This document shows positions 21,547 through 46,009 of a stretch of DNA of 64,000 nt, one piece after another. The DNA lies in the NCBI GenBank assembly GCA_963733035.1, contig CAVTBU010000007.1, forward strand, positions 288,001 to 352,000. Reading direction: 5' to 3'. The position numbers were made by a program, and so were the translations under genes. Origin of the DNA: Pirellulales bacterium. Lineage in GTDB: Bacteria > Planctomycetota > Planctomycetia > Pirellulales > PALSA-1355. Every line of letters begins with the position of its first letter. Within the stretch, counting starts at the first letter, position 1. The notes beneath the pieces were generated by a model, which ran no database searches, was not told the DNA's origin, and was given only the letters and a program-made list of their open reading frames with translations.

Positions 21547-22959
21547 TTAGCCCTTGATGAGTAAACGCGAAATGGCTCCCCGCGGAAGATCGCCAACAAT
21601 CAGCGTCTGTGACGTTCCAACTGACTTAAGAATATTCTCGGCAGCCAAATACCCGCTCCGTACCGCGCTCTCCATCGTCGCGGGCCAGCCGGTCGAGGTC
21701 CAGTCTCCCGCAACGAGTATGTCTGGCACGCCGGTTGTTTGTGCCGGCCTTACGCGGTCGAGACCAGGGCAAGTCGAAAAGACGGCGGCCCGATCCGTCA
21801 CAACGCGGGCATGCAGTCGTTTTGCCGCCGCCGCGGCAGGCCAAATGGCTCCCAATTCCCGGCAGACTTCGTCGATAATCTCCTCGCGGTCCCGGCCGGC
21901 CAGATCGCGCGATGCGCTGACGACAACTTGGTAATAGTGTCCACCAGCGCCGTCCGAATTGTTCGCCGAGCGATGAAACACCCATTGACTCAGCCGCCCC
22001 ACGAGCACGGCATGTTCGTGCGGCATGATGGGGCGATCGAACCAGAGGTGCACACCCGTGATCGGAGATGGCTCGATCGCATCGACGGCGGCGAGCCACG
22101 GCCAACGCTGGGCCAGGCTTGCGTCCACCAAGTCGCGCAGCCGAAACCACGGCACGGCCAGCACAACGTAGTCGGGCTGCATTTTCTCGCCACTAGCCAT
22201 TGCGATTTCTGGCCGGTCGTCGTAGCTCACGCGTCTGACCGCCCTGTTCAGATGCAGCTCGATCCCGTGCTCGGTCAGCCAGCGCTCGAGCGATGCGCCA
22301 TAGAGTTCGCCCAGCGGCACCCGCGGCACCTCGACGACGTAGGCCTCTCGTGACGCAAGGAACCCGTCGACAATCACTTTCCGCGCCGCGGCCAACGAGG
22401 CGCGGTCGAGCTCTTCGCCGAGCGCACTGACCAGGATCACGTTCCAATACAATTCGATCGCCCGTGGCGTCTGACCTTGCCGCTTGAGCCACGCGCCGAT
22501 TGTCGGCGAACCTTCGACGTCGTCGGCCCGCATTCGCATCAAATTCCACGTCGCTCTGCCGATTGCAAGTCGGTCGCGCACCGAGAGAAACTTCAGCCCC
22601 CAAAACGCCGGTGCCAAGTGGAATGGGGCCGGAAGCCAGCTCGCGTAAAATGGATAATCGTGCCCGTCGGGACCGATAAAGTGCAGTTGGCGATCGTGGC
22701 GAAATAGATCCGCGATTCCGACGCGGCGGCAAAAGTCAGCCAGGTTTGTGCAGCACCGCATACTGACGTGCTGACACTGATCAACGACTTCGTTCGTGTT
22801 GGAATCGCGAAACGAGCCGGCCCGACCGCCGAGCGCGCGTCGGGCTTCAAAAATCTGAACGCGGCAATTGCCGTCGGCCAGCGCCACGGCCGCTGCCATT
22901 CCGGCCAGCCCGCCGCCCACGATCGCGACGCTCGGTCGGCTTTCGCCGCCGGACATCAT
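21547..22959 (-). CDS. hpnE: Hydroxysqualene dehydroxylase
   Basis: IVGGGLAGM FAD motif, LGGRAGSF, DQCQHV, AGDWTSTGWPATMESAVRSG; downstream of hpnC and hpnD. Confidence 0.92.
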   Translation of the reverse strand: MMSGGESRPSVAIVGGGLAGMAAAVALADGNCRVQIFEARRALGGRAGSFRDSNTNEVVDQCQHVSMRCCTNLADFCRRVGIADLFRHDRQLHFIGPDGHDYPFYASWLPAPFHLAPAFWGLKFLSVRDRLAIGRATWNLMRMRADDVEGSPTIGAWLKRQGQTPRAIELYWNVILVSALGEELDRASLAAARKVIVDGFLASREAYVVEVPRVPLGELYGASLERWLTEHGIELHLNRAVRRVSYDDRPEIAMASGEKMQPDYVVLAVPWFRLRDLVDASLAQRWPWLAAVDAIEPSPITGVHLWFDRPIMPHEHAVLVGRLSQWVFHRSANNSDGAGGHYYQVVVSASRDLAGRDREEIIDEVCRELGAIWPAAAAAKRLHARVVTDRAAVFSTCPGLDRVRPAQTTGVPDILVAGDWTSTGWPATMESAVRSGYLAAENILKSVGTSQTLIVGDLPRGAISRLLIKG

Positions 22960-23843
22960 GGCACCGCGGCGCCGACCGTACTTTCAACCGCCGTGGTGCC
23001 GCCGGCATACCACTGCGAGGCAATTCGCATCTTTTGCCAGGGACTGAGCTGCACGCGGCGCGACAGTACGTCGCCGTCGAGCCGTTTTATTTCGGCCAGC
23101 AGTGCGCGATAGACGGCCGTCATGCTGCCGAGTATCCGCTGGCCATCGGTCGAGAGGTGCGAAACCAGTTCACTGCCGGCTTCGTACAAGCGTTCGGCCC
23201 GGGCGATCTGAAATTGCATGAGCTGACGAAATCGGTCGTTGCGCACCCCGGCGCGCAATTCGTCGGGTGTATAGTCGAATCGCTGGAAGTCCTCACCAGG
23301 TAGGTAAACCCGACCTTGTTCGGCGTCCTCTTTCAAATCGCGAAGGATGTTCGTGAGTTGGAACGCCAGACCGCAACTTCGCGCGGGCACTTCGGCGGCC
23401 TCGCTCGTACAGCCCCAAATCGGCAAACAGGCCAGGCCAACGGCCGAGGCCACGCGGTGACAATACTCGGCCAGGTCGTCGAACGTTTCATAGCCGACCG
23501 GCTCGAGATCCATTTCCACGCCGTCGATCACGTCCTCCAAATGCCGCAGCGAAATACCGCAATTTCGCACGGTATCGGTCAGCGCCGGCAGCAAGGGATC
23601 GTCGTGGTGGCCGTCCTGCGATCGCAACAACGAACGGCGCCACTGGGCAAGCGCCACCCGCCGGATTTCTATCGGCTCGGAGCTGTCCCCCAAGTCATCC
23701 GTACGGCGCAAATAGGCATAGAGGGCGCACATTGCCATCTGTTGCCGCTTCGGAAGCAGCAGAAACGAATAGTAAAAGCTCGACGCCGAAGCGCGGGCAA
23801 TCTCCTGGCAATGTGCGTAGCTGGCTTCCAGTCCATCGTTCAT
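22956..23843 (-). CDS. hpnD: Presqualene diphosphate synthase
   Basis: SFYYSF, RRTDDLGD, YCHRVASAVG, FQLTNILRDLKED, GRVYLP; overlaps hpnC and hpnE. Confidence 0.9.
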   Translation of the reverse strand: MNDGLEASYAHCQEIARASASSFYYSFLLLPKRQQMAMCALYAYLRRTDDLGDSSEPIEIRRVALAQWRRSLLRSQDGHHDDPLLPALTDTVRNCGISLRHLEDVIDGVEMDLEPVGYETFDDLAEYCHRVASAVGLACLPIWGCTSEAAEVPARSCGLAFQLTNILRDLKEDAEQGRVYLPGEDFQRFDYTPDELRAGVRNDRFRQLMQFQIARAERLYEAGSELVSHLSTDGQRILGSMTAVYRALLAEIKRLDGDVLSRRVQLSPWQKMRIASQWYAGGTTAVESTVGAAVP

Positions 23844-24790
23844 GGGCGAGTTTCCCTGCCGCTCTTACGTCCTGTAAAACTTCGCGTGCGCCACCAGCAT
23901 CCGGCCAGTAGCCGCAGTTGAGCTCCCTTTGACAACGTGGGACGCTCCCGCCAAACGTTGTAATTGATTCTTCGAATTGCTCGAACCATCGCCAGGCCGC
24001 CGGCCGCAAACAGCGCGACGTCGAGCCGTAAATCGCGCGGCATCAACTCCACGAGCGGCATGCCTTGCCGCAAGTAGCGTTCGGCCCGGGCGACTTCCTC
24101 GGCCAATGCCGCGCGAAACGGGGCATTGCACGCGCCGCGGGCAAACATCGCCTCGTCGTATCCGGCTCGCGCCAGTGTTTCGGCCGGCAGATAAACCCGG
24201 TCGTTCCGCCAATCGCGGGCCACGTCCTGGCAAAAGTTCACCAATTGCAGGCCCGTGCAAATCGCGTCGGAAAGTTCTCCTCGCCGCTGGTCATGGCAGC
24301 GACCGAGGTACAAAACCAGTCGGCCCACGGGATTGGCCGAGCGCCGGCAATAATCCAGCACGTCGGCCGGCGTGGCATAGCGCGTCGTTTGCTGATCCTG
24401 ACGAAAGGCGGAGAGAAGTTGCAAAAACGGCTCGCGTGGAATATCGAACTCTCGAATTGTCGGTGCCAGCGCGACAAACACCGGATGCTCGGCTTCGCCG
24501 GCGTAGCAACGCTCGAGCTCCTGCTGCCACCAACCCAACAGTTCCAAGCTGCGTTCGGGATCGCCCGTTTCGTCAGCCAGATCATCAGCCCACCGGCAAT
24601 AAGCATAGACGGCAAAAAAATGCGGAAGCAGCCGGCGAGGCAGCAGCCGGCTGGCCACGGTAAAATTCTCGTAGTGACGGCGAGCCAGTTGACGACAGTA
24701 GGTTGCGGCTTCTTCCGCCGAAAACCGTCGCGAGGCGCAAGATTCAGGCCCGAGTCGGCCGAGCTCGGCGACTACCGAGAACTGCCCCAT
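23840..24790 (-). CDS. hpnC: Hydroxysqualene synthase
   Basis: HYENFTVAS, YCRWADDLADE, YCRRSANPVGRL, LQLVNFCQDV; ATG 24790 follows GGAGG. Confidence 0.92.
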   Translation of the reverse strand: MGQFSVVAELGRLGPESCASRRFSAEEAATYCRQLARRHYENFTVASRLLPRRLLPHFFAVYAYCRWADDLADETGDPERSLELLGWWQQELERCYAGEAEHPVFVALAPTIREFDIPREPFLQLLSAFRQDQQTTRYATPADVLDYCRRSANPVGRLVLYLGRCHDQRRGELSDAICTGLQLVNFCQDVARDWRNDRVYLPAETLARAGYDEAMFARGACNAPFRAALAEEVARAERYLRQGMPLVELMPRDLRLDVALFAAGGLAMVRAIRRINYNVWRERPTLSKGAQLRLLAGCWWRTRSFTGRKSGRETRP

Positions 24791-25002
24791 CAAACAAGCC
24801 TCCATCCGTGATGTAACAGAAATGTTTGCGGTTAAGGCAACAGGGATCCGTCCAGCGTGTCTATTCTCATTTGCAGGCAGGTGCATTATGATGAATCGCT
24901 TACACCTTGCAAAGCCAGACCCGTTGCCGTGATAGCACTTCCGGCAGCCCACGCCCAAGCGACCAAACTTCTTCCCAGGCCCCGACTACGGGCAATTGGC
25001 CC

Positions 25003-25944
25003 ATGAAGATCATCCTCGCCAGCCCACGCGGATTCTGTGCCGGCGTCAATATGGCCATCGAAACTTTGGAGTTGGCCATCAAGATCTTCGGTACGCCCGT
25101 CTACGTTTATCACGAGATCGTCCACAACAAGTATGTGGTCGAACGGTTTCGGGCCAAGGGGGCCGTGTTTGTCGAGGACCTCTCGGAGGTCCCGCTGGGG
25201 GAGACGCTGCTTTACTCGGCACACGGCGTTTCGCCGGAGGTCCGACGGGTTGCAGCCGAGCGCAGATTGAAGACGGTCGACGCCACCTGTCCGCTCGTGA
25301 TCAAAGTTCACTTGGAGGCCGTTCGCTACGCGAAGGAAGGCTATACGATTATCCTCATCGGGCATGAAGGACACGACGAAGTGATCGGCACGATGGGCGA
25401 GGCCCCCGAAGCGATCATCCTGGTCGAGTCGCCGCAGGACGTCGATCGCTTGGAGTTGAAGACGGAGAAGCTCGCATATCTGACGCAAACGACGCTCTCG
25501 GTCGATGATGCCAGTCGGATCATCTGCCGCCTCGAAGAGCGTTTTCCGCATATCGTCGGTCCGCCAAAAGCCGATATTTGCTACGCCACGCAAAACCGCC
25601 AGGAAGCCGTTCGCTTGCTGGCTCGCGAAGCCGACGCCGTGCTGGTGCTCGGAAGTCAGAACAGCTCAAACAGTCAGCGACTTGCCGAATTGGCCACCGA
25701 AACGTCGACGCGCACCTTTCTTATCGATGGCCCACGCGATATCGACCTGGCTTGGTTTCGGCCGGAGGACACCGTGCTGGTAACCGCGGGCGCCAGCGCG
25801 CCAGAAACGGTCGTTGAACAGTGCGTCGAGCTTTTGCAGGCAACGTTTGGCGCCGAGGTCGAGTCGCGATCGATCCGCGAGGAGGAAGTTTACTTCCCGC
25901 TGCCGAAGGAATTCCGGCAGATCGCCGGTGCGGCCAAGGGGTGA
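25003..25944 (+). CDS. ispH: 4-hydroxy-3-methylbut-2-enyl diphosphate reductase
   Basis: PRGFCAGV, HEIVHN, SAHG, DATCPLV, TQTTLS, ICYATQNRQ, NSSNS, TAGASAP. Confidence 0.97.
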   Translation: MKIILASPRGFCAGVNMAIETLELAIKIFGTPVYVYHEIVHNKYVVERFRAKGAVFVEDLSEVPLGETLLYSAHGVSPEVRRVAAERRLKTVDATCPLVIKVHLEAVRYAKEGYTIILIGHEGHDEVIGTMGEAPEAIILVESPQDVDRLELKTEKLAYLTQTTLSVDDASRIICRLEERFPHIVGPPKADICYATQNRQEAVRLLAREADAVLVLGSQNSSNSQRLAELATETSTRTFLIDGPRDIDLAWFRPEDTVLVTAGASAPETVVEQCVELLQATFGAEVESRSIREEEVYFPLPKEFRQIAGAAKG

Positions 25945-26030: not shown

Positions 26031-26471
26031 CTACGTCGAGTGCAGGTAGCTCTTGAGGTAGTGGTTCTCCATCGTCAACCGATCGTGCTGAGTCTTGACC
26101 ACGTCGCCGATGGATATGAGTCCGACCAGGTCACCCATCTCGACGACCGGCAGGTGCCGAATTCGGCGGTTGGTCATGAGGCCCATCGTGTCTTCGATCG
26201 AGTCTTGTGGCGAGCCGACGACGACATTGCGGGTCATGGCGTCGGACACGCGCAACTGATCGAGCGCAGCTTTGTGGCCGGCACAGGCGCGAAGAATGTC
26301 GCGCTCCGTAATGATGCCGACCATCTCTTGCGACATGCTCTTCGAGTCGAACACAACCAGCGAACCACAATTATGGCTCACCAATTTTTGCACCACGTCT
26401 TCGAGCGAGTCGCTCGCGTCGATGGTATGCACGACGGTCCCTTTGGATCGCAGAATCTCTCGGAGGTTCAT
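26031..26471 (-). CDS. Tandem CBS domain protein
   Basis: GIITERDIL, IRHLPVV, GLISIGDVVK. Confidence 0.92.
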   Translation of the reverse strand: MNLREILRSKGTVVHTIDASDSLEDVVQKLVSHNCGSLVVFDSKSMSQEMVGIITERDILRACAGHKAALDQLRVSDAMTRNVVVGSPQDSIEDTMGLMTNRRIRHLPVVEMGDLVGLISIGDVVKTQHDRLTMENHYLKSYLHST

Positions 26472-26788
26472 GATTCGCCTCCCGCCCGGTCGAATGACGT
26501 TTGCGCGGATGTGAAAGGGTGCGCGTCTTCACTGCCAGAACTGCACTCAAAAGCATACTCCGCGGCGGGTCGGCTTGTCAAAAAAATGCGCATCTTTCGA
26601 TTTGGCAATCCTTGACGCCCCAGTGGCTTACCCGCGTCCGCCGGAGACCCCGGCGTGCCAGGGGCGGTAGTTGTGTTCGGCCCCGGGGTTGGGTATTTTT
26701 CAGGTATTCGGCCCGCCGCTTCCTCCCCGCCTGAACGGCCGGCCGGTGCCGATGACCGGCTTCCGTTCCCATCGAGTGAGGAGTTTTC

Positions 26789-27904
26789 ATGAGCACACTG
26801 GACCAGGCCACCAGCCAAGAATTGGAAGCCGCCGTCAAGCGGGCCCGCGACCAACTAGACGCCCAGGCGTACGAAATCGTGCAATGGCACTTCCACCCGT
26901 CGACCGGTTGCCCGTTTTGGTTGGAGAAGGCCAAGTCGCTGAAGTTTGATCCGCTGAAGGACGTGAAGTGCTTTGACGACCTGAAGAAGTTCGACCCGTT
27001 TGAGGACGAATGGCTTCGCGGCGGTCCGGTGCGCCGCTGGGTGCCCAAGGCCTATGCCGACAAGCCGATCTATGTCTTCGAGACGGGCGGCACCACCGGC
27101 GTGCCCAAGAGCCGCATCGCCATCGAAGACTTCCGGGTGGACTACTCGCTGTTCTCCAACACGCTCCCTGACGAATACTTTCCGCACGGGGCGAACTGGT
27201 TGATGTTGGGGCCGTCGGGTCCGCGGCGGCTGCGGTTGGCCGTGGAGCATCTGGCGCAACATCGTGGCGGCATCTGCTTCTGTATTGACTTGGATCCTCG
27301 CTGGGTGATCAAGCTTATCAAAAAGGGCTGGATGGAGCACCTTGAGGAGTACAAGAAACACTGCATCGATCAGGCGATCACGATCCTCGGCGCCGGCCAC
27401 GATATTCGCTGCATGTTCACCACGCCGAAGCTACTCGAATCGCTGGCGCTTGAGCTCGAAAAACGCGGCAGTTCGATTCGCGACGCCGGCATTACCGGCA
27501 TCTTCTCCGGCGGCACCGAGTTCACTCCGCAGTGGACGCGTTTCGCCACCGAAGAGTTCCTGGACGGCGTGTATATGACGCCGACCTACGGCAACACGTT
27601 GATGGGGCTGGCTTGCAGCAAGCCCGTTACGGCCGAGGAGAACTACAAAATCTCCTATTTTGCCCCGCAACCTCGGGCTGTGCTCGAGATCGTCGATTTC
27701 GAAGACCAGAACAAAGTGGTCGACTACGGCCAGACGGGTCGCGTCAAGCTCACGACTTTGACCAAGGAGTTCTTCGTGCCCGGCTTCCTCGAGCGCGACG
27801 AAGGCGAACGAGAACCTCCTTACATTAAATACCCCTGGGACGGCGTGAGCGGCGTCCGTCCGTTCCACGAAACGGCCGAGGCCACCACCGTCGGCGTGTA
27901 TTAG
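26789..27904 (+). CDS. GriC/EhpF-like AMP-forming (ANL-related) protein, adenylating half of an arylcarboxylate reductase
   Basis: WHFHPSTGCPFWL N-terminal motif, FETGGTTGVPK P-loop, IDLDPRWVIK, YGNTL, GRVKLTTLTKEFFVPGFLERD; 371 aa, lacking the ANL C-terminal lid. Confidence 0.75.
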   Translation: MSTLDQATSQELEAAVKRARDQLDAQAYEIVQWHFHPSTGCPFWLEKAKSLKFDPLKDVKCFDDLKKFDPFEDEWLRGGPVRRWVPKAYADKPIYVFETGGTTGVPKSRIAIEDFRVDYSLFSNTLPDEYFPHGANWLMLGPSGPRRLRLAVEHLAQHRGGICFCIDLDPRWVIKLIKKGWMEHLEEYKKHCIDQAITILGAGHDIRCMFTTPKLLESLALELEKRGSSIRDAGITGIFSGGTEFTPQWTRFATEEFLDGVYMTPTYGNTLMGLACSKPVTAEENYKISYFAPQPRAVLEIVDFEDQNKVVDYGQTGRVKLTTLTKEFFVPGFLERDEGEREPPYIKYPWDGVSGVRPFHETAEATTVGVY

Positions 27905-28085: not shown

Positions 28086-29525
28086 GTGCTGAACATTCCG
28101 ATCCTGCGTTGGGGCAAACCCTACGACTCGCTCGAAAGCGACGAAGTCAAACACTTCATCACCGGCGAACCGATTGCCAAAGTCAGCCAGGCAAATGCGG
28201 GACTGCTGCAGCGCGATATGCGCAAGGCGCCCCATGCTCGCGAAGTGCTGCGCGACATCGCGATCGACGACCTGATCGAGCGCGTCAAAAAAGCCGGCGA
28301 GTTGTATCTGAACGCCACGCTTCCGCTCGGCGACGGCACGCAATCGCCTGATGAGTTTGCCCACATGCAGTCCGCTTCGACCGGCCTGCCCGAGCATATG
28401 TGCAAGGCGAACATGCAGAAGAACTTCTTCGTGCTCTCGCACATGGATCAGATGCTCGATGCCCTGACTCGGGGGCTCGACCTGAACATCCTCTCGAACG
28501 GCTATGGCATGGAAAGCCGCGGCGTGGTGGTGAGCTACCAGGCCCAGGCGCCGGCTGTGGGATTGGTGCTGCCTTCCAACTCACCCGGCGTGCACACGCT
28601 CTGGTTGCCGGTCATTCCGATGCAGATCGGCCTGGTCCTCAAGCCCGGCCCGCAAGAGCCCTGGACTCCCTATCGCATGACCGCGGCGTTCACCGAGGCG
28701 GGCATCCCGCCGGAAGCGATCTCGATTTATCCCGGCGGTCCAGACGTGGGAGCGGCCGTGCTGGCCAATTGCGATCGCAGCATGATCTTCGGCGGGACAC
28801 CCACGGTCGAACGCTACAAGGGCAACCCCAAAGTGCAGGCCCACGGTCCCGGCTTCAGCAAGATTCTGCTCGGCGACGACCTGGTCGACGATTGGGAGAA
28901 GTACATCGACCTGATGGCCGACAGTATTTATCTCAACAGCGGTCGTGGTTGCATCAACTGTTCGGGCATCTGGGCTTCGCGCCACACGAAGGAGATCGCC
29001 CAGGCACTGGCCGAGCGGCTCGGGCCGATTCCGGTGTTGCCGCCCGAGGACCCCAAAGCCGGTCTGGCCGCATTCACCATTCCCGGTGCCGCGCCAGCCA
29101 TCTGGTGCCAAATCGAACAGGGTCTCAAGGAGGAGGGCGCGACCGACATGACCAGTCAGTACGGCCCACGGCTGGAAGAAAAAGAACGCTGTGCCTACCT
29201 CCGGCCGACGATCATTCATTGCAAGTCGCCGTCAGTCGCGCTGGCCAAGGCGGAATACATGTATCCGTTTGCCACGGTCGTCGAGTGTCCACAAGACAAG
29301 ATGCTCGAATCGATCGGCCCCACGCTCGTCTGCACGGCCATCACCGAAGACGCGAAATTCCAGCGGCAATTGACCGACGCCACGCATATCGACCGCTTGA
29401 ACATTGGCCCCATTCCGACGATCAAGCTCGATTGGCTGCAGCCCCACGAAGGGAACATCGTGGAGTTCCTGTTCCGCGCTCGGGCCTACCAGTTGCCGCA
29501 GGAACGACTTGCCGCCGCACGGTAA
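28086..29525 (+). CDS. GriD/EhpG-like aldehyde-dehydrogenase-superfamily reductase
   Basis: LPSNSPGVHTLWL, LKPG..EPWTP, HGPGFSK, NSGRGCINCS (catalytic Cys), EYMYPF; paired with the GriC-like gene. Confidence 0.75.
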   Translation: MLNIPILRWGKPYDSLESDEVKHFITGEPIAKVSQANAGLLQRDMRKAPHAREVLRDIAIDDLIERVKKAGELYLNATLPLGDGTQSPDEFAHMQSASTGLPEHMCKANMQKNFFVLSHMDQMLDALTRGLDLNILSNGYGMESRGVVVSYQAQAPAVGLVLPSNSPGVHTLWLPVIPMQIGLVLKPGPQEPWTPYRMTAAFTEAGIPPEAISIYPGGPDVGAAVLANCDRSMIFGGTPTVERYKGNPKVQAHGPGFSKILLGDDLVDDWEKYIDLMADSIYLNSGRGCINCSGIWASRHTKEIAQALAERLGPIPVLPPEDPKAGLAAFTIPGAAPAIWCQIEQGLKEEGATDMTSQYGPRLEEKERCAYLRPTIIHCKSPSVALAKAEYMYPFATVVECPQDKMLESIGPTLVCTAITEDAKFQRQLTDATHIDRLNIGPIPTIKLDWLQPHEGNIVEFLFRARAYQLPQERLAAAR

Positions 29526-29553
29526 GATATAGGTGACATACAACAAACCAAAT

Positions 29554-30866: not shown

Positions 30867-30876
30867 GTTGGGGCCC

Positions 30877-32073: not shown

Positions 32074-32127
32074 CCGTAACCGAGGCGCTTCCGCTTGCGG
32101 GTTCGGTCCGATCAAACGAGGTACAAG

Positions 32128-35400: not shown

Positions 35401-35439
35401 TTGAGTTTCTTGCTCGCCTGAAAGTGCCCGGTGTCTGGT

Positions 35440-36729: not shown

Positions 36730-36786
36730 TGAGTCCGCAACTCCATTGATCCCACGACGAATTATCTGAGACGGACAGCCTGGTTT

Positions 36787-37647: not shown

Positions 37648-37743
37648 TTTCCACCGGTAGGTCGGGCATTTGCCTGACAGACGCCACAATACCACTGCAT
37701 GTCAGGCCGAGGCCTGAGTTACACGAGGGAAAATACACGACCC

Positions 37744-39182
37744 ATGGCACAAACCTGTGACATTGGACTGATTGGCCTCGCCGTGATGGGCGAGAACCTG
37801 GCGCTCAACATGGAGAGCCGCGGCTACCACGTCGCGGTCTTCAACCGCACCACCAAGGTCGTCGACGGCTTCATGGCCGGCCGAGCCCAGGGCAAGAACT
37901 TCGTCGGCTGTCACTCGGTCGAAGAGCTGGTCCAGAATCTCAAGTCGCCGCGCAAGGTGATGATCATGGTCAAAGCCGGGCGCCGGTCGACGCCGTGATC
38001 GGTCAGCTCCTACCGCTGTTGAACAAGGGCGACGTGATCATCGACGGTGGCAACAGCTACTACGTCGATACCGAACGCCGCACCAAGGAAGTCGAGGATC
38101 AGGGGCTGCTGTATATCGGCACGGGCGTCTCAGGGGGCGAGGAGGGTGCACTGCTCGGCCCCAGCATGATGCCCGGCGGATCGCCCTCGGCGTGGCCGCT
38201 TGTCAAGCCAATTTTCCAGGCCATCGCGGCCAAGGTGGGGCCGAACGGCGACATTCCCTGTGCCGAATGGGTTGGACCGCGCGGAGCAGGACATTATGTC
38301 AAGATGGTGCACAACGGCATCGAGTACGGCGACATGCAGCTGATCTGCGAAGCCTACTTCGTGCTCAAGCATGCCCTGCGCCTCTCGAACGAGGAACTGT
38401 ACAACGTATTCGACGAGTGGAATCGCGGCGACCTGGACAGCTACCTGATCGAAATCACGCGAGACATCTTCAGCGTTCGCGACCCGGACACCAACAACTA
38501 CCTGGTCGACTACGTGCTCGACAGGGCCGGGGCCAAGGGGACCGGCAAATGGATGAGCCAGTTGGCACTCGACCTCGGCGTGCCCAGCACCTTGGTGACC
38601 GAAGCGGTGTATGCCCGCAGCTTGTCGGCCATGAAGGATGCCCGCGTCCGCGCGAGCAAAGTGCTCAAGGGCCCCACCGCGAAATTCGACGGAGACAAGC
38701 AACCGTTCATCGACGCCACGCGTCAGGCGCTATACGCCTCGAAGATCTGCAGTTATGCCCAGGGCTTTGTGCAGATGGAGGCGGCCGCCAGGGAGCACGA
38801 TTGGCCGCTCAACTTTGGCGACATCGCACTGTTGTGGCGGGGCGGCTGCATCATTCGAGCTCGTTTCCTCGATCGGATCAAGGAAGCGTTCGATGCCGAT
38901 CCGAAGCTGGAAAACCTGCTGCTGGCCCCGTACTTTACCGCGGCGGTGGAAACCGCCCAGCCGGCGTGGCGCCACGTCGTCTGCACGGCCATGCAACTGG
39001 GCATTCCGGTGCCGGCCTTCGCCTCGGCGTTGGCCTACTTCGACGGCTATCGCCAGGAGCGGCTGCCGGCCAACTTGCTTCAGGCCCAGCGCGATTATTT
39101 CGGTGCCCACACCTATGAGCGCACCGACAAACCCGGCTCCTTCCACAGCGACTGGCTGCGGTTGCGCCGCGAACCGAAATAA
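37744..39182 (+). CDS. gnd: NADP-dependent 6-phosphogluconate dehydrogenase, one G missing at 37978-37980
   Basis: [31 protein letters not shown] restored by +[35 protein letters not shown]. Confidence 0.95.
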
Positions 39183-39186
39183 GATC

Positions 39187-39969
39187 ATGCCCGCTTCCTA
39201 TCTCGACGAACTTTTCGGACTCTCTGGCCAGGTGGCTGTGGTGATCGGCGGCACCGGCGTACTGGGGGGCAGTTTGGCCGAGGGTATCGCTCGGGCGGGC
39301 GCCCAGGTGGTCGTTGCCGGCGGGCATGCGGTCCGTGGCCAGGCGCGAGTCGACGCGATTGCAGGGCAGGGGGGGGCGGCTGCGTTTCTGCCGGTAAACG
39401 TTAGCGATCGCAAATCGATCGAAGACCTGCTCGCCGCAACGGTCGCGAAGTTTGGCCGCGTCGACATGCTGGTCAACTGCGCCGGCGTCAATTCGGCCAG
39501 CGACTACTTCGACGTGAACGATGAAGATTGGCAGCGCGTGATCGACATCAATCTCCGCGGCACGCATTGGGGCTGCCAGATCTTTCGCGCGCACATGGCC
39601 GCCCATGGCGGCGGCTCGATTCTCAACATTGGCAGCGTCACGTCGGACAAACCGCTCTCGCGCGTATTTGCCTACAGCGCCTCGAAGGCCGCCGTGGTCA
39701 ACCTGACGCAAAACGTGGCCCGGGAGCTCGCCCCTAAGCAAGTCCGCGTGAACGCCATCTGCCCCGGTTTTTTTCCCGCGGAACAAAACCGGGCCATCCT
39801 CGACGAAACGCGCACCGCCAATATCATGGCTCAAACGCCAATGGCCCGATTTGGCGATCCAGAGGAACTCGTGGGCGCAACGCTGTTGTTGCTCTCAAAG
39901 AGGGCGGGCAGCTACATCACAGGTGCGGCGTATTACGTCGACGGCGGATTCACGGCCATGCGGTTCTAG
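39187..39969 (+). CDS. SDR oxidoreductase (D-mannonate/2-keto-3-deoxygluconate dehydrogenase-like)
   Basis: GGTGVLGG, NCAG, YSASK, VNAICPGFFPAEQN, VDGGF. Confidence 0.85.
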   Translation: MPASYLDELFGLSGQVAVVIGGTGVLGGSLAEGIARAGAQVVVAGGHAVRGQARVDAIAGQGGAAAFLPVNVSDRKSIEDLLAATVAKFGRVDMLVNCAGVNSASDYFDVNDEDWQRVIDINLRGTHWGCQIFRAHMAAHGGGSILNIGSVTSDKPLSRVFAYSASKAAVVNLTQNVARELAPKQVRVNAICPGFFPAEQNRAILDETRTANIMAQTPMARFGDPEELVGATLLLLSKRAGSYITGAAYYVDGGFTAMRF

Positions 39970-39982
39970 CAGTCGGCCAAAA

Positions 39983-40528
39983 TTACACCGGCGTGACGAT
40001 CTCGAGCAGCTCCACGGCCGGTTCGCCGTCGAAGTGAATGATGGCCGTGCGGCCGTAGGTAATCTGACCGGGCTGCAGGCCGAACAGCTTTCGCAGGTCT
40101 TCGCCAGGCGTGACCTTGTAGAGCCGCGTCAGGTGCACTTCGCGGAGCACATTGTGCTCGATCAGAATCCGACCAAGCGGGGTTTGTCGGCTTTCGATCT
40201 CGGCCCGCACCGAAGGATTCACACAGGCAAAGTCCAGCCGCATGATGCCGAACTGCACGATCTGGCCGTCTCCCTGCCGGGCCAGCAGAATTTTTCGGGA
40301 GTAGTGATCACCGTCGAGCCGCGATTCGAGTACGCGAACGTCGACTTTATCATTGTGAAACCGCTCGACGGTCACCGTCATGTGACTATCGTGCGCCAGC
40401 AACATGCGGTAATCGCGCTTGAGGTCGTGGGAATCGACCTCCTCGAATTGTCCCAGTTCTTCCGGCCGATCGTAAAACAGCGCGATCAGGGTATCCAGGT
40501 CGGGAGTCACGGCGTGCGAATCGCTCAC
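39983..40528 (-). CDS. Chorismate-lyase (UbiC/UTRA-fold)-like protein
   Basis: 181 aa; LLAHDSHMTVTVE, YSRKILL, TPLGRIL and GRTA...LLEIV parallel UbiC SMT..L, R.I.L, PLG..L and R...E motifs. Confidence 0.6.
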   Translation of the reverse strand: MSDSHAVTPDLDTLIALFYDRPEELGQFEEVDSHDLKRDYRMLLAHDSHMTVTVERFHNDKVDVRVLESRLDGDHYSRKILLARQGDGQIVQFGIMRLDFACVNPSVRAEIESRQTPLGRILIEHNVLREVHLTRLYKVTPGEDLRKLFGLQPGQITYGRTAIIHFDGEPAVELLEIVTPV

Positions 40529-40663: not shown

Positions 40664-42508
40664 TTACGAGGGTGTAACGATCGGCAGCTGTGCAGCGATG
40701 CCGGTCACTTCCACGTTGGTTGCCTCGCCAGGGCGGTCGAGTACCGTGTCCACCAAGTAGTATAACAACCGCCGCAGTTCGTCGGGTTCGATTTCGTCGG
40801 CCAGAGCCTCGGCCCGCTCGTGGTACTTGTCCACCAGTCGATGCGCTTTTTCGAACACGCCGGCTTTGCGGTACAGGTCGCGCACTCGCGCAAGCATTTC
40901 TGGCGTCGCCGCACTGCCAACCAGCGATTCGAGTTCCCCGCGCTCCCGCTCGTCGAGCGATTCGAGAGCCAAGGCCCAGAGCACCGTTGGCCGTCCACCC
41001 AGGATGTCGCCACCGGCGGCAAGCTTGTTGTGCGTGTCGTGTTCCCAATCGTCCAGATCGTTGAGAATCTGAAATGCCACGCCCAGCTGCTTGGCGAATT
41101 GTGCCAGCGGCTCGGCATACCGCGCGGCGTCGCCGGCCAGGCGAGCGCCGGCATACAAGGCCGCTCCGAAAGCCGGGGCTGTCTTCAGAGCGTAGATTTT
41201 CAGGGCGTCCAGCGGCGTCAGCCGCTTGTCGTGGGCGTCGCGCCAGAGTAGCTCGGCGCCTTGCCCTTCGCAGAGGCGAATGTGCGCGTCGGCCAGGTGA
41301 TTGAGGATGTCGGACACAGCGTCAGCACCGAGCGTTCCTACCTCGCGGCTCACCAGCCGATAGCCAAGGCCAATCAGGTAGTCCCCTACGTTGATCGCAG
41401 TGGGTATTCCGCAGCGGCGGTGCAGTGTCTCGTCGCCGTAGCGGAAACCGTCGTCGTCCTCGATGTCGTCGTGCACCAGGGAAGCCTTGTGAAACGTCTC
41501 GATCGATAGCGCGGTCCGCTTGATCGCGTCGGAAAATCCGGCCACATGAGCCGCACCATCGCCCAACGTGCCGTTGCCGCCCGTCAGGGCATCGTACACC
41601 GCCAGCGTCGTAAACGGCCGCGAGTGCTTGCCACCCTTGGTCAGGAAATCGTAAGCCAAGGCTTCGGTGCCAGCCAGCGGGTCAAGCCCGGCAATGCCCT
41701 TACCGTTCAATTCGGCGAGAGTCTTGTTGCTTCGCGTGCGCACCCCAAGCCGTCCCAGTTCGGCCGGTTCGAACATCTTCTCGGCGGCCCGCATCAAGTG
41801 CACGTAGCTGCGGGTTTGGACCTGGGGCTGGCGATGCTCGGTGCGGATCATCGCCGAAACCCAATCTTCGTCAACCGATGTATTGCGGCAATCGCTCGAC
41901 AATAGCGGCACGGCCATGCAGGGAATTCCGGCCAGCAGAATCTTGTCGATCGCCTTTTCGAGCACGTTTAAACAAGCGACGCCGACGATGGCGTCAACAT
42001 AACCCGATACGATAATCTTCAGCACGATGGGCGATCCCTCGGCGACGAGCACCTTGTAGCCCATCGCCTCGGCCGCGGAGCGGAAGTCGGCAATGCTGCA
42101 CGCTCCACATTTCTTGCACTCCAGGCCGAAGTCGTCGTAATCGGCCGGGCAGCCTTCGGCGTGTTTCAAACAATGCGGCAGCAAGAACAAGCGGCGGCTT
42201 GGCGGCACGGCCGCGACCTGGTCTTCCCAAAATGCCGTGACCAGCGCGACCATCGTCCAGCCGACGTAACCCTCGGGCAATCCCATCTCGTCGAGCAGCG
42301 CCCGGCCCACGGCCTCCATCTCGTCCTTCGACAGCGGGCGCGACTTGTCGAGCCGGGCCGCCACTTGGTTGGCGCGGTCGCGAATCTGTTCACGCAATTC
42401 CAGCGTCTCGGGCACGAGCTTGAGATGGCTGGTATTGCGACGACGCGACTTGCGGGGCGGAGAATCGGACTGAGCTACGGCGGTTTGCCGCTGGGGTGCA
42501 ATCGCCAA
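40664..42508 (-). CDS. DUF116-like Cys-rich domain fused to trans-isoprenyl diphosphate synthase
   Basis: LPHCLK, CKKCGAC, GVAC, DCRNT; then GGKHSRP, LVHDDIED, GQ, KTA, FQILNDLDD. Confidence 0.85.
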   Translation of the reverse strand: MAIAPQRQTAVAQSDSPPRKSRRRNTSHLKLVPETLELREQIRDRANQVAARLDKSRPLSKDEMEAVGRALLDEMGLPEGYVGWTMVALVTAFWEDQVAAVPPSRRLFLLPHCLKHAEGCPADYDDFGLECKKCGACSIADFRSAAEAMGYKVLVAEGSPIVLKIIVSGYVDAIVGVACLNVLEKAIDKILLAGIPCMAVPLLSSDCRNTSVDEDWVSAMIRTEHRQPQVQTRSYVHLMRAAEKMFEPAELGRLGVRTRSNKTLAELNGKGIAGLDPLAGTEALAYDFLTKGGKHSRPFTTLAVYDALTGGNGTLGDGAAHVAGFSDAIKRTALSIETFHKASLVHDDIEDDDGFRYGDETLHRRCGIPTAINVGDYLIGLGYRLVSREVGTLGADAVSDILNHLADAHIRLCEGQGAELLWRDAHDKRLTPLDALKIYALKTAPAFGAALYAGARLAGDAARYAEPLAQFAKQLGVAFQILNDLDDWEHDTHNKLAAGGDILGGRPTVLWALALESLDERERGELESLVGSAATPEMLARVRDLYRKAGVFEKAHRLVDKYHERAEALADEIEPDELRRLLYYLVDTVLDRPGEATNVEVTGIAAQLPIVTPS

Positions 42509-42520
42509 GATGCTTCTCGC

Positions 42521-44392
42521 TTACGGTTTGCCGGTGTGCGCGATCTTGCGAGGCACGCTGGTGGGGAGGTACTTGCGTGTCGCCTGGCCGAGCACCGAGG
42601 TAGTCATGATCAGGGGATATAGCTGCTCATAATACCACAGCTTCGCGAAGTAGAAACCAATTGGCGAGCTTTCCGCGTGCCGATTGGCCTCCACGGCGTC
42701 AATCAGCCATTTTAGCCCTTTTAGAGCCCCGTCTTCGTGGGCCTGCGCACTTCCGCAAGTCAGCAGGGCTTCGACGGCCAGGGCCGTTTCCTCAATGCTG
42801 GCCGCACCGGCCGAGGGCTCGCATGCCCCGAAGCTGCCGTCGGCCCGCTGCAGCGAGACCAGCCAATCGAGGGCGCGCCGCGGCGGAGGGCTGTCCAAGC
42901 GATTCAGATCGCGCAGTGCCAATAGCACCTTGGCGGTGCCGTAGATTGGGTTGTCTTCCTGCTGGCGACTCTGATTGCCGAACCAGAGCGGAATCCAGGA
43001 GCCGTCGCGCTGCTGGGAACCAACCACGTACCGCAGGCCGGCCTCCATCGCCCGCGCAATGCGGCCGTCGAGCTCTTCCCGGGCAAGATCGGAAAGGTTT
43101 GCATCGGTTACGAGCTCCGCGCGCCAAGCGTGCAATGCTCGCAGCGCATGCGCCGTTAAATCGCAGCCGCTTTTATCGAACGGCAGGGTTCCCCAGCCGC
43201 GGGCGAACGTCGGCCATCCGCCGTCGGAATTCTGCAGATCGAGTAACCACCGCACGCCAGCGGCCGCGGCCGGCACGATTCGCTCGCACTGATGCGGATC
43301 GGCCTTTGCCCAGGCGGCAAGCGCCAATAGCGCTCCCGGCGTATCGTCGGCATCGGGCACGCCGCCGGACAGATCCGTCCAGGCCCAGCCACCGGGCGCA
43401 GCGCCCGTATAGGGATGCACGCCGCGATGTTGGCAGGACAGAACCCAGTCGAGACAGTTCAATTCGCGCAGATCCTCACCGCCGGCAGCCAGTGCGTTGA
43501 CCGCCAATGTGGTGTTCCAGGTTGCCAGGTTGGTGTCGATCGGCCAACTGCCGTCGGGCCGCACCGAAGCGAGCAGGAACTCGACGCCTTTGCGGACGAT
43601 CGGATGATTGGCTCGGCCGGTGGCGGCCAGGCTCATCACGACAAAGCTGGTCAGCGGCGCGGCTTCCAGAAAACCGCCGCTTTCCGGCTGCATCGTCTCG
43701 ACGACCGCCAGGCTCTTCTCGAACGTCAGCTTGCGAATCAGGCGAGCGATCGGATTGGCGGGCTTCTTATGGCAAAACTTTGCCTGGCCGATGGCTACCA
43801 AGGCCGGAATCGCATAGCTGACGACCGGCAGCCGCAAGAACTTCCAGGCCTGCTGTGGAAAACAAGCCAGTTCAAACGGCAGGGCGGGCACCTGGCTCCA
43901 CTCAATGATGCCGGCCAAAGCGCAGTTGGTAAGAATGGGCACCGCAAAGGTCTTGTCCTTGCCGTAGCGCCGCTTGAGTCCCCTCACACCCCCGTGCGAC
44001 GCGATATAGGCGTCGGCCCGTTCGAGCAGTCCGGGGTGATTGGCTGGTGTGCAGGTCAGTGCAAAGGCGGCTCGCACGAGCATGGTGGTGGCAATGTTCG
44101 AAGCGCTCTTGTCGGTATCGCCCCAGCCGCCGTCGGGGTTCTGATGTTTGGCCAGCCAGCGGACGCTGCCGACAATCAATTCGCTGAGCGCGCATTCACG
44201 CTGTTCGTCGACGATGCGTCCAGAGAACGTCGGAGCATGTCGTTCGACGATGGCCAAAGCGCTGATCGCCGTGGCGGTGGAAAGAGCGGAACTGGATAAT
44301 TGTCCGATCCAGTGTCCGTCGGCGGTGGTTTCCGCCAACAAATCGCAGCGCGCCGTTTCATAGGCGGCCAGGAGTCGATCAGGATCGACCAT
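42521..44392 (-). CDS. Divergent squalene-hopene-cyclase-like (type II terpene) cyclase
   Basis: QW repeats (QNPDGGWG, QNSDGGWP, QQRDGSW, QRADGSF), PDADDT protonation motif, IYGT; start MVDPDRL at 44392. Confidence 0.85.
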   Translation of the reverse strand: MVDPDRLLAAYETARCDLLAETTADGHWIGQLSSSALSTATAISALAIVERHAPTFSGRIVDEQRECALSELIVGSVRWLAKHQNPDGGWGDTDKSASNIATTMLVRAAFALTCTPANHPGLLERADAYIASHGGVRGLKRRYGKDKTFAVPILTNCALAGIIEWSQVPALPFELACFPQQAWKFLRLPVVSYAIPALVAIGQAKFCHKKPANPIARLIRKLTFEKSLAVVETMQPESGGFLEAAPLTSFVVMSLAATGRANHPIVRKGVEFLLASVRPDGSWPIDTNLATWNTTLAVNALAAGGEDLRELNCLDWVLSCQHRGVHPYTGAAPGGWAWTDLSGGVPDADDTPGALLALAAWAKADPHQCERIVPAAAAGVRWLLDLQNSDGGWPTFARGWGTLPFDKSGCDLTAHALRALHAWRAELVTDANLSDLAREELDGRIARAMEAGLRYVVGSQQRDGSWIPLWFGNQSRQQEDNPIYGTAKVLLALRDLNRLDSPPPRRALDWLVSLQRADGSFGACEPSAGAASIEETALAVEALLTCGSAQAHEDGALKGLKWLIDAVEANRHAESSPIGFYFAKLWYYEQLYPLIMTTSVLGQATRKYLPTSVPRKIAHTGKP

Positions 44393-44668
44393 CAGGTATG
44401 CAGCCCTCAGTGGACATGGAAGCTCGCACAAGCAGGTCCTCCGCCAGCGATGCGATCGTGCTACGACGATCGATGTGCAACGCCTAGACCCGCGGCGAGC
44501 CGTAAGGATCAAAGTCTAAATACCGCCGGCCGGTCTGTCGATAGTTTTGCGCGGGCCAGCCCCCCAGAGGCAGCGTCCTGGGCAACTCCGAAAGGCACGT
44601 CTCACACCCGGCGGCACATCGCAAGTCGTTACTCGTTAGCGGATTTGCTGTCGAAGGGGCCGGCCGGT

Positions 44669-44677
44669 TGTTATAAT
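44669..44677 (+). promoter_or_regulatory. Extended -10 promoter of the radical SAM gene
   Basis: Perfect TGnTATAAT, 67 nt before ATG 44744. Confidence 0.55.
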
Positions 44678-44743
44678 CGGAAACAATCGTCGCCCGCGGA
44701 AAATACCGTATCCACGCCCGCCCTCCCGCTAGCCGAGTGGCCC

Positions 44744-46009
44744 ATGTATTTGAAGTTGGCCAAACGCGCCTTGTTGGAAACCGACAAGCGCCTGCTCTGG
44801 AAGCTCGCCTATAACATGGGCTTCAAGGGCATGCGCGCGATTCAAAAGCATAAGGCGCGGCTCAAGCGGGGCGAGTTCTTTCCGCCGTTTCTCTATATCT
44901 CGATCATCAATAGTTGCAACCTGCGTTGTCAGGGTTGCTGGGTCGACGTGGCTGCCAAACAGCAAACGATCGATCTGGCAGCCATGAAACGCATGATCGG
45001 CGAGGCCAAGCAAGTCGGCAACAGTTTCTTTGGGATTTTGGGCGGAGAGCCGTTCATGCATCCCGAGCTAATGGAAATCCTGGCCGCGCATCCAGATTGT
45101 TACTTTCAAGTATTCACCAACGGCCAGTTCATCAGCGATGACGTGGCCCGCCAACTCCGCCGCCTGGGCAACGTGACGCCGCTGGTCAGCATCGAGGGAT
45201 CCGAAATCATCAGCGACCAGCGGCGCGGCCGCCCGCACGTCTACAGCCGCTCGATGGAAGGCTTGCACAACTGCCTCAAGCACAAGGTGCTGACCGGCGT
45301 CTGCACGAGCCTTTGCCAAACGAATATCGACGATCTGCTCACCGAGCGATGGGTCGACCGGTTGATCGAGATGGGGGTGATGTACATGTGGTACCACACC
45401 TATCGCCCCGTCGGGCCGGATGCGAAACCCGAGCTAGCGCTCACGCCCGAGCAGCAGCGGCGGGTCCGGCAATTCGTCGTCGATACCCGGGCGACCAAGC
45501 CCATTTGCGTGGTCGATGCCTATTACGATGCCGATGGCCAGGCGCTCTGTCCGGCGGCAACTGGTTTCACGCACCACATCAGTCCCTGGGGCGACATTGA
45601 ACCCTGCCCGATCGTGCAGTTCGCCACCGAGTCGATCCACGATGCGCGGCCGCTACGTGAGACGTTCAATAACTCGGAATTTCTCCGCGACTTCCGACAC
45701 GCCGCCGCCAGCGCCACGCGGGGTTGCATCGTCTTGGAACGCCCCGATCTGCTTGAGGCGCTAGTCAACAAACACGGCGCCCGCGATACCACGGCCCGCA
45801 AAGCGGCCTTGGCTGAACTGGCCGCCATGCAACCGCGCGGCAGTCAGTTCGATCCCCAGCATGAGATTCCCGAACGGAGCTTCGTCTACCGCTTCGTGAA
45901 GAAGCACTTCTTCAACGACTTCGGGGCGTATGCCAACCCCGTCATGCCGGCCGGATTGGAAGTCACGACGAGACCGGAGCCGGAAGTCGTGCCGTTGCGA
46001 ACCAACTAG
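44744..46009 (+). CDS. Radical SAM protein with Twitch/SPASM-like C-terminus
   Basis: CNLRCQGCW, GGEP, FTNG, CPAA...HISPWGDIEPCP...GC. Confidence 0.88.
   Translation: MYLKLAKRALLETDKRLLWKLAYNMGFKGMRAIQKHKARLKRGEFFPPFLYISIINSCNLRCQGCWVDVAAKQQTIDLAAMKRMIGEAKQVGNSFFGILGGEPFMHPELMEILAAHPDCYFQVFTNGQFISDDVARQLRRLGNVTPLVSIEGSEIISDQRRGRPHVYSRSMEGLHNCLKHKVLTGVCTSLCQTNIDDLLTERWVDRLIEMGVMYMWYHTYRPVGPDAKPELALTPEQQRRVRQFVVDTRATKPICVVDAYYDADGQALCPAATGFTHHISPWGDIEPCPIVQFATESIHDARPLRETFNNSEFLRDFRHAAASATRGCIVLERPDLLEALVNKHGARDTTARKAALAELAAMQPRGSQFDPQHEIPERSFVYRFVKKHFFNDFGAYANPVMPAGLEVTTRPEPEVVPLRTN

Follow-up and report, generated by a model that had tools for sequence, protein, structure and literature searches.

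Most of a conserved and uncharacterised set of genes, whose probable product is a ring-bearing isoprenoid lipid with an attached aromatic unit, was identified in a 64,000-nt stretch of DNA (hereafter the window) from a Pirellulales bacterium (PALSA-1355; GenBank assembly GCA_963733035.1, contig CAVTBU010000007.1, positions 288,001-352,000 of the forward strand). The set consists of two modules. Module A comprises a stand-alone adenylase (AMP371), an aldehyde dehydrogenase (ALDH) family protein (ALDH479), an Fe-ADH family protein, a beta-propeller, a HemN-like radical S-adenosylmethionine (SAM) enzyme and orf181, a protein of the chorismate-lyase/DUF98/UTRA fold. Module B is built around a class II cyclase (cyc663) and includes a fusion of DUF116 with a trans-isoprenyl diphosphate synthase (DUF116::IDS), a second, divergent radical SAM enzyme, a GcvH-like protein and a ferredoxin-domain protein (Fdx372). 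The genes, identified at the level of family or fold, are conserved, and they co-localise and co-occur in related genomes.

The open reading frames (ORFs) of the window were typed by Pfam and NCBIfam profile searches (Table 1), and all the gene classes named in an initial annotation of the stretch, made from its letters, were found at or near the positions it had proposed, the starts of the cyclase and of the second radical SAM enzyme being corrected to 44392 and about 44741. The annotation had proposed a candidate undescribed system and had stated that no characterised pathway with this gene set was known to it; none was found in the literature searched. No paper was found on the core operon described below or on its link with the aryl module, subscription journals and bioRxiv supplements lying outside the search. 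The claim of novelty stands for the wider set, for which this search found no described pathway, and falls for the pairing of the cyclase with a polyprenyl synthase, which is noted in the available text of Santana-Molina et al. (2020). G000 denotes here the genome of the window, other G numbers its relatives and L numbers loci.

A multi-phylum core around the cyclase

The cyclase cyc663 scores 112.5 bits against the NCBIfam hopene-cyclase model TIGR01507, the cut-off of which is 431.1. It contains the motif DADDT, and D348, D350 and D351 of the alignment are invariant in 10/10 cyclases. The true start is M41, since an in-frame TGA of the relatives precedes that Met. Selenocysteine or a pseudogene was also considered for the cyclase homologues and was rejected, the apparent internal stops being TGA codons 5' of the true Met start.

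Squalene-hopene cyclase (SHC)-like enzymes, termed 'SHC-like', constitute a large clade with intact catalytic residues, whose substrate and product are unreported in the available text of PMC7306690 and PMC12414744 (Mol Biol Evol, 2025). The accessible part of the former (Santana-Molina et al., 2020) describes retained catalytic residues and a polyprenyl synthase that is usually close by. Two SQHop_cyclase domains, a kept DxDD, a length of about 620 aa and a score far below the hopene-cyclase cut-off are shared by the clade and cyc663, and the neighbouring polyprenyl synthase and the taxa (Planctomycetes, Verrucomicrobia, Acidobacteriota) by the clade and the locus of the window. Judged from these features and taxa rather than from placement in a tree, cyc663 fits this clade of unknown function. 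Whereas the papers on the clade, in their available text, name just the nearby polyprenyl synthase, a multi-gene core and an aryl module are found here; 'radical SAM' and 'DUF116' have 0 occurrences each in the accessible supplement text of Santana-Molina 2020.

A profile of ten cyclases retrieved 564 relatives from one-genome-per-species contigs. The loci of 80 of these were kept with their flanks and, together with the window, gave 81 loci, many on short contigs, in which the neighbouring families were counted by tblastn and de novo ORF clustering. The DUF116::IDS fusion is found beside the cyclase in 48 of the 81 loci, Fdx372 in 34, the GcvH-like protein in 32, and the radical SAM enzyme and an alpha/alpha-toroid protein of about 300 aa in 27 each. 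Lower counts were obtained for orf181 (17), a CobW-type GTPase (16), the propeller (11), a class-V aminotransferase resembling Cys desulfurases (9), the HemN-like enzyme (8) and Fe-ADH (7). Since the same families adjoin the cyclase in other genomes and phyla, their grouping in the window exceeds chance. The core of GcvH-like, ferredoxin-domain, radical SAM, DUF116::IDS, toroid and cyclase genes recurs in Planctomycetota, Verrucomicrobiota, Acidobacteriota and Hydrogenedentales, and takes the form of an operon, (desulfurase)-GcvH-like-CobW-Fdx-rSAM-DUF116::IDS-toroid-cyclase (rSAM, radical SAM), in Vicinamibacterales, Hydrogenedentales, Verrucomicrobiales and one metagenome-assembled genome labelled Pirellula. 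The toroid and CobW genes of G000 lie outside the window, a CobW homologue being encoded on contig C5.

The polyprenyl synthase beside the cyclase bears on the source of the chain, for which hpnCDE could also be considered. These genes and ispH had been counted by the initial annotation as members of the system, and the whole 24 kb could on that view be one squalene-based cluster, in which cyc663 cyclises the squalene of hpnCDE to an unusual triterpenoid. In its favour, a distance of 2-5 kb separates hpnCDE and ispH from the AMP371 end of the cluster, both in the window and in G007. They adjoin it only in these two genomes, however, and hpnCDE were seen near the cyclase in none of the other 29 order-level genomes examined and in none of the 80 loci, whereas the synthase fusion is the commonest neighbour counted above. 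In addition, G000 carries canonical hopanoid genes on contig C8 (L133 5471-9612), where the SHC reaches 670.3 bits on the model on which cyc663 has only 112.5 and is accompanied by HpnH and an HpnG-like phosphorylase. A squalene-based cluster is considered very improbable, and hpnCDE and ispH are neighbours only, which serve the canonical hopanoid route.

The synthase part of the fusion has an invariant first motif, FHKASL(V/I/L)HDDI(E/Q)D, with DDI(E/Q)D in 38/38 distinct sequence rows, and a second motif that reads DDxxD in the Verrucomicrobia/Acidobacteria types and NDLxD, with the first Asp changed to Asn, in the Planctomycetia types, so that both Asp-rich motifs of trans-isoprenyl diphosphate synthases are present. 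Small residues, Ala and Ser, occupy positions -5 and -4 of the first Asp-rich motif, and small residues at these positions do not usually cap the chain early. Seven Cys of the DUF116 domain are invariant in 44/44 sequences. The model of this domain is of fair quality (pLDDT 84.1); Foldseek returned no match for it at E<=0.001 (best 0.019, TM about 0.3), and VIA-align returned generic Rossmann/flavodoxin-like rows only (best Z 7.0, rmsd 3.4, 96 aligned).

The GcvH-like protein scores 67.5-67.7 bits against the GcvH equivalog cut-off of 115.85, compared with 148.3 bits for the canonical gcvH of the same genome on contig C6, and its lipoyl-type Lys74 is invariant in 28/28 homologues. The score below the cut-off and the kept lipoyl-type Lys point to a carrier-like paralogue and not to GcvH itself. 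Fdx372 has eight Cys in two CxxCxxC...CP motifs, which are kept in 34/35 sequences. In the radical SAM enzyme of the core, C206/C210/C213 and also C339, C417, C436 and C476 are invariant in 25/25 homologues, and M148 is the most likely start because conservation among these begins at residue 154. It is 59-64% identical to the Acidobacteria and Verrucomicrobia copies. Its NCBIfam matches are generic SPASM-type ones, all far below cut-off (HpnH, 35.3 against 225), and in the ESM Atlas only generic radical SAM clusters were found.

A putative aryl-acid module

AMP371, of 371 aa, aligns with EhpF (PDB 3hgu/3l2k) over practically the full length (phmmer E 2.7e-44, residues 9-360 to 8-357 of 369) and has a P-loop-like GGTTGVPKS. 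In Pfam it gives a weak match to the AMP-binding N-domain only, the ANL C-terminal domain (AMP-binding_C) being without a match, and the 8000 scored relatives from a homology search are named only 'PaaK-like adenylate-forming protein' or 'hypothetical'. The designation 'GriC-like' in the initial annotation holds at the family level through the full-length EhpF match, GriC itself having been compared by description. ALDH479 is encoded 181 bp downstream and has generic ALDH matches only in the PDB (best 4.8e-16). When the surroundings of adenylase homologues were examined in 18 further genomes (20 loci), the adenylase and ALDH genes were found as a pair in 11/20.

A stand-alone adenylase of about 370 aa that lacks the ANL C-terminal domain and lies beside an ALDH-family protein is likewise known from GriC/GriD (grixazone) and EhpF/EhpG (D-alanylgriseoluteic acid). 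Those pairs belong to actinomycete and enterobacterial antibiotic clusters, whereas here the pair is accompanied by Fe-ADH, a HemN-like radical SAM enzyme and a chorismate-lyase-fold protein. EhpF and EhpG are said, in work attributed to Bera et al. from 2010, to convert phenazine-1,6-dicarboxylate to a formyl compound. According to the available text of PMC10179220, GriC and GriD convert 3-amino-4-hydroxybenzoate to its aldehyde through the acyl-AMP.

The Fe-ADH protein scores below all the NCBIfam equivalog cut-offs, and its gene comes after that of ALDH in the module A loci. The propeller, whose position is also kept in these loci, begins with a signal-peptide-like region (hydrophobic stretch 27-52, then SLAAE). 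The HemN-like enzyme has the general Radical_SAM and HemN_C architecture with CRKRCKFC (CxxxCxxC) and stays below the cut-offs of HemN (181.7 against 324.95), ChuW/HutW (185.4 against 400) and HemW (157.8 against 205.4); its PDB matches include HemN 1olt (2.4e-34) and the methyltransferase NocN (9.2e-29).

The chorismate-lyase fold that had been suggested for orf181 was upheld by structure prediction and fold search, though without support from Pfam or NCBIfam. The AF2 model, from an 18-sequence alignment, has a pLDDT of 92.6 and matches 2nwi (AF1396, DUF98) in Foldseek with E 1.1e-8 and TM 0.69/0.78, the E. coli chorismate lyase UbiC (1fw9/1jd3) with TM 0.52-0.62 (1fw9 0.57/0.62), and UTRA domains as well. 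On this predicted model the chorismate-lyase/DUF98/UTRA fold is confirmed. R78 and PLGR117-120 are invariant and E176 is near-invariant in the 18 sequences, and this Arg and C-terminal Glu may correspond to catalytic residues of UbiC. Profile searches gave little: orf181 fails the Pfam chorismate-lyase and DUF98 models, has nothing in Pfam at E<=1 except DUF4388 (0.16), nothing in NCBIfam at the thresholds used, and a single PDB profile match, 2nwi (E 0.007).

The failure of these models is one ground for supposing that no aryl acid is involved, and that the adenylase, ALDH and Fe-ADH proteins act on a terpenoid carboxyl or a fatty acid in the manner of LuxE/LuxC, with orf181 as a non-catalytic binder or chaperone of UTRA type for the HemN-like enzyme or the cyclase. 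The fold is common to non-catalytic UTRA ligand-binding domains and fits these effector domains nearly as well as it fits UbiC; in 6 loci, moreover, orf181 forms a tight pair with the HemN-like gene, and in the minimal loci described below (G001-G003, G035) with the cyclase; the substrate range of the EhpF family rests on two cases. Nevertheless, aryl acids are the substrates of the only relatives of this adenylase type that have been characterised (GriC/GriD, PMC10179220; EhpF), a 4HBT-family thioesterase and a PaaK-like ligase in module A loci are typical of aromatic-acid metabolism and were counted as family evidence for the aryl reading, and orf181 keeps the Arg and Glu noted above. A role of the module apart from aryl acids is therefore held to be improbable.

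Genes for a GT4 glycosyltransferase and a 4HBT thioesterase often accompany module A, as do genes for a PaaK-like ligase and for an ABC/FtsX exporter (ABC ATPase; FtsX permease, about 1134 aa). In G000, a second locus of the same system with several of these genes is located on contig C7 (L131 5336-14505, minus strand), about 130 kb upstream of the window (Table 1).

Arrangement and co-occurrence of the two modules

Out of 41 related genomes searched, the cyclase was found at E<1e-100 in 31, G000 included, and the flanks of 30 of these were mapped by tblastn with the proteins of the window. The common order is AMP-ALDH-FeADH-propeller-HemN-GcvH-Fdx-[0.1-5 kb]-rSAM(opposite strand)-cyclase-IDS-orf181, which is found in G024, G013, G014, G022, G006, G009, G016 and G040 and in Bremerella L113/L127; the genes SDR-6PGD-HAD-PFK come after orf181 on the opposite strand where the contig continues. 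The two sub-clusters of the initial annotation, which had to recur together elsewhere to be credible as one system, are thus contiguous in relatives, and the window differs from them by one inversion of about 10.6 kb, from the PFK gene to the radical SAM gene. Both junctions of the inversion are real. That at 35112-35728 is spanned by a 617-nt public contig of run X1 with 2 differing letters, which is not independent support since X1 may be the sample of origin, and that at 45593-47018 by a 1427-nt public contig of run X3 with 106 differing letters. The gap between Fdx372 and the radical SAM gene holds a varying set of genes in the relatives, with homologues at other places in G000, and these were not counted in the system.

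In the fetched cyclase flanks of the 30 order-level genomes, module A genes are present in 12/30 and orf181 in 27/30. Shorter forms include a reduced one in G023 (L047 2806-12737) and G007, where the genes from AMP to HemN lead directly to the cyclase and orf181 and the flank lacks GcvH-like, Fdx, radical SAM and DUF116::IDS genes, and where the cyclase may use a chain made elsewhere; six genomes with orf181-IDS-cyclase alone in the fetched flank; and a minimal form of orf181 and cyclase only in G001-G003 and G035. A stand-alone module A operon, AMP-ALDH-FeADH-propeller-HemN-orf181, occurs in G176 and G212, and, measured against this order, module B falls exactly between HemN and orf181 in the present lineage.

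The co-occurrence of the modules was examined in 251 genomes drawn evenly from the phylum, with the adenylase counted at >=52% identity and the cyclase at E<=1e-60. The adenylase was found in 50 and the cyclase in 64, of which 38 have both, 12 the adenylase alone and 26 the cyclase alone. The cyclase is therefore present in 38/50 adenylase genomes against 26/201 others, in line with the phylogenetic profile expected from the initial annotation, and the odds ratio of 21 overstates the link because related genomes are not independent. The protein orf181 occurs in 36/251 genomes, 26 of them with the cyclase, and was placed in module A because all its carriers are adenylase carriers (36/36 among the 50).

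These distributions also have to be read for the possibility that the modules are functionally independent, module B making a cyclic polyprenoid and module A, with the GT4, thioesterase and ABC/FtsX genes, making or processing an aromatic alcohol or glycoside of its own for the envelope; inherited synteny or shared regulation would then account for the adjacency of the two. Module A is complete as an operon in genomes that lack an SHC-like cyclase (G176, G212, G197, G052, G272). Among the 12/50 adenylase genomes without a cyclase at E<=1e-60, five were re-searched with the cyclase profile; three gave only weak matches of 64-114 bits, and two gave none, among them a single-contig genome that is 94% complete. 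Module B, in turn, stands without module A in many loci of Verrucomicrobia and Planctomycetales and in 26/64 cyclase genomes. Megabases separate the adenylase, orf181 and cyclase genes in the 11 genomes of family f19, several of which are complete.

Against such independence, module B lies inside module A, flanked by its HemN-like gene and orf181, the cyclase is enriched in adenylase genomes as given above, and the modules are adjacent in differing arrangements in distant lineages. In G144 the module B run is on one strand with AMP-ALDH divergent; G114 and G240 join the modules in further differing ways; in Vicinamibacterales L121 module B is followed by FeADH-propeller-HemN-orf181; and in Verrucomicrobia L091 the adenylase gene adjoins toroid-IDS-rSAM. 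The accessory genes also tie the two, as the GT4 family is found beside cyclase-IDS in L093/L098/L107 and beside module A in 7/13 module A loci, and in G000 the toroid gene of module B has the thioesterase gene of module A on one side and its ABC/FtsX genes on the other. The independence of the modules is viewed as unlikely, though as a substantial possibility. One joint system, as first proposed, is favoured by the co-localisation and co-occurrence, and the presence of the aryl module also without this cyclase means that the coupling is not obligatory.

Proposed pathway, known systems and gene inventory

The set is tentatively read, at somewhat less than an even chance, as making a cyclic polyprenoid that does not derive from squalene and carries a reduced, chorismate-derived aryl unit, where we infer the substrates, the sequence of the steps, the enzyme that couples the parts and the product. 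In this scheme, orf181 would free an aryl acid from chorismate, and AMP371, ALDH479 and Fe-ADH would take it through the adenylate to the aldehyde and the benzyl alcohol, while the HemN-like enzyme would carry out a radical alkylation of the ring. The DUF116::IDS fusion would make a regular head-to-tail polyprenyl diphosphate with no squalene stage, the aryl and polyprenyl parts would be joined, possibly by the toroid protein, and the DxDD cyclase would close rings by protonation from the far end of the chain. The radical SAM, Fdx and GcvH-like proteins would tailor the product or give reducing power or electrons, GT4 would glycosylate it, and the ABC/FtsX proteins and the exported propeller would move it outwards. 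A glycosylated aryl-polyprenoid (meroterpenoid) lipid exported to the envelope is the most likely product.

Several points weigh against this scheme, including those already given on the profile searches and UTRA likeness of orf181 and on the genomes that hold one module without the other or keep the two far apart. No UbiA-type aromatic prenyltransferase was found among the annotated conserved neighbour families. A simple meroterpenoid scheme leaves the GcvH-like carrier, the CobW GTPase and the Cys-desulfurase-like protein without a role. The toroid protein, considered as a candidate Zn-dependent thiol prenyltransferase, is nearest to RabGGTase beta (E 3.5e-9), and this assignment is weakened by the absence of any conserved Cys or His for a Zn site in 24 sequences.

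Among the known systems, a sister clade of the 'SHC-like' cyclases is described in the available text of PMC12414744 as cyclising aryl-bearing polyprenyl chains, that is, polyprenyl meroterpenoids, with Lon15 as an example and with epoxidised substrates. Like Lon15 (longestin) and AtoE, the present system would cyclise a regular head-to-tail polyprenyl chain with a non-terpenoid part and has a dedicated polyprenyl synthase in the cluster. Longestin is glycosylated. Lon15 and AtoE take epoxidised substrates, whereas cyc663 keeps the DxDD of alkene-protonating enzymes, and no epoxidase or monooxygenase was seen among the conserved neighbours of the cyclase. We know of no counterpart in the Lon15/AtoE systems to the Fe-S, GcvH-like and radical SAM proteins. 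In the cyanobacterial merosterolic-acid pathway of MstE, an aryl acid of shikimate origin and a prenyl chain are closed by a class II cyclase, as outlined in the accessible part of PMC12414744. MstE has one domain, 300-400 aa and DxD, whereas cyc663 has two domains and DxDD. The MstE pathway uses a UbiA-type prenyltransferase. The pairing of a class II cyclase with a lipid-modifying radical SAM enzyme, predicted here, is shared with SHC and HpnH of the hopanoid route; the two differ in the scores of cyc663 and of the radical SAM enzyme on the hopanoid models, given above, and in the chain, predicted here to come from a polyprenyl synthase and not from HpnCDE.

The locus and its relatives give a defined gene set for a cyclase clade without an identified product. 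The interleaving of the core with genes predicted to make and reduce an aromatic acid, seen in some Planctomycetota and a single Vicinamibacterales genome, offers a first chemical hint at the substrate of an SHC-like enzyme. The Fe-S and carrier proteins are an unusual component for a terpenoid or meroterpenoid cluster, and neither 'GcvH' nor 'polyprenyl' occurs in a 2026 review of lipid radical SAM enzymes. Should the product prove to be a cyclised regular polyprenoid, it would bear on the origin of the tricyclic terpanes (cheilanthanes) of the rock record, which are presented in the available text of PMC9247107 as 'orphan biomarkers' with source unassigned and a hypothetical bacterial tricyclohexaprenol precursor. 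A speculative extension, with a small chance of being right, is that the 'SHC-like' cyclase and its dedicated DUF116::IDS make cyclised regular polyprenoids of the tricyclopolyprenol type, which in this lineage would bear a chorismate-derived benzyl head and a sugar and would be tailored by the GcvH-like, Fe-S and radical SAM proteins. If true, widespread bacteria of soil and water would be a biological source of cheilanthanes, and these proteins a new oxygen-independent lipid-tailoring machinery.

Table 1. Features of the window, with positions counted from its first letter, and of two further loci of the same genome (G000)
Feature	Position	Strand	Evidence or context
AMP371, stand-alone EhpF/GriC-type adenylase, module A	26789-27904	+	PDB EhpF match, weak Pfam AMP-binding
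ALDH479, module A	28086-29525	+	Pfam Aldedh 8.3e-22
Fe-ADH, module A	29715-30866	+	Pfam Fe-ADH 2.6e-49, ADH_Fe_C 8.9e-36
Exported PQQ_2/BamB-like beta-propeller, module A	30841-32073	+	Pfam PQQ_2 1e-52
HemN-like (class C type) radical SAM enzyme, module A	32095-33450	+	Pfam Radical_SAM and HemN_C
GcvH-like lipoyl-carrier paralogue, module B	33612-34058	+	Pfam GCV_H 4.7e-17
Fdx372, N-terminal unknown domain and 2x[4Fe-4S] ferredoxin domain, module B	34144-35262	+	Pfam Fer4 families at 231-285
orf181, chorismate-lyase/DUF98/UTRA fold, module A by phylogenetic profile	39983-40528	-	AF2 model and Foldseek
DUF116::trans-polyprenyl-diphosphate-synthase fusion (IDS), module B	40664-42508	-	Pfam DUF116 2.1e-38, polyprenyl_synt 1e-40
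cyc663, SQHop_cyclase N and C, DxDD class II cyclase, module B	ORF 42521-44512, true start M41 at 44392	-	Pfam
Divergent Radical_SAM enzyme, module B	ORF 44300-46009, likely start M148 at 44741	+	Pfam Radical_SAM 6.4e-15
hpnE	21547-22959	-	HpnE 465.9 bits, cut-off 283.05
hpnD	22956-23843	-	HpnD 269.5 bits, slightly below cut-off 278.6
hpnC	23840-24958	-	HpnC 330.7 bits, cut-off 250.45
ispH	24907-25944	+	IspH 425.1 bits, cut-off 420
CBS-pair protein	26031-26471	-	between ispH and AMP371
PPi-PFK	35431-36729	+	Pfam/NCBIfam; housekeeping
HAD	36787-37647	+	Pfam/NCBIfam; housekeeping
6PGD, two frames	37699-39182	+	Pfam/NCBIfam; housekeeping
SDR	~39229-39969	+	Pfam/NCBIfam; housekeeping
Membrane/coiled-coil ORF	46021-47496	-	BatA/VWA/DUF58/MoxR operon
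VWA	47955-50555	-	BatA/VWA/DUF58/MoxR operon
BatA-VWA	50372-52231	-	BatA/VWA/DUF58/MoxR operon
DUF58	52228-53106	-	BatA/VWA/DUF58/MoxR operon
MoxR	53319-54170	-	BatA/VWA/DUF58/MoxR operon
GT4	L131 13210-14505	-	contig C7
4HBT thioesterase	L131 11549-12055	-	contig C7
Toroid protein	L131 10581-11585	-	contig C7
ABC ATPase	L131 9908-10765	-	contig C7
FtsX permease, 1154 aa	L131 6508-9972	-	contig C7
SHC	L133 7591-9612		contig C8; 670.3 bits, cut-off 431.1
HpnH	L133 6533-7552		contig C8; 428.7 bits
HpnG-like phosphorylase	L133 5471-6484		contig C8; 115.2 bits, below cut-off

The PPi-PFK, HAD, 6PGD and SDR genes (35431-39969), which the initial annotation did not name, separate the two runs of the window; they were brought in by the inversion and are outside the system. 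The 6PGD gene is read as 37699-37998 and 37995-39182, and the matching pieces share one frame in G013; the split reflects a frameshift in the gene itself or else an indel of the assembly. The DUF1501 gene at 13286-14783 likewise lies in two overlapping ORFs (profile positions 1-185 and 190-390), and this second apparent frameshift in the window hints at assembly indel errors.

At the hpnCDE end, the stretch 26031-26854 on the minus strand holds the CBS-pair protein and a low-complexity ORF of 128 aa, a placement found elsewhere only in G007. At the other end, an operon of the BatA/VWA/DUF58/MoxR type (46021-54170, minus strand; orf491 and the genes beyond it) abuts the radical SAM gene and is unrelated to the cluster.

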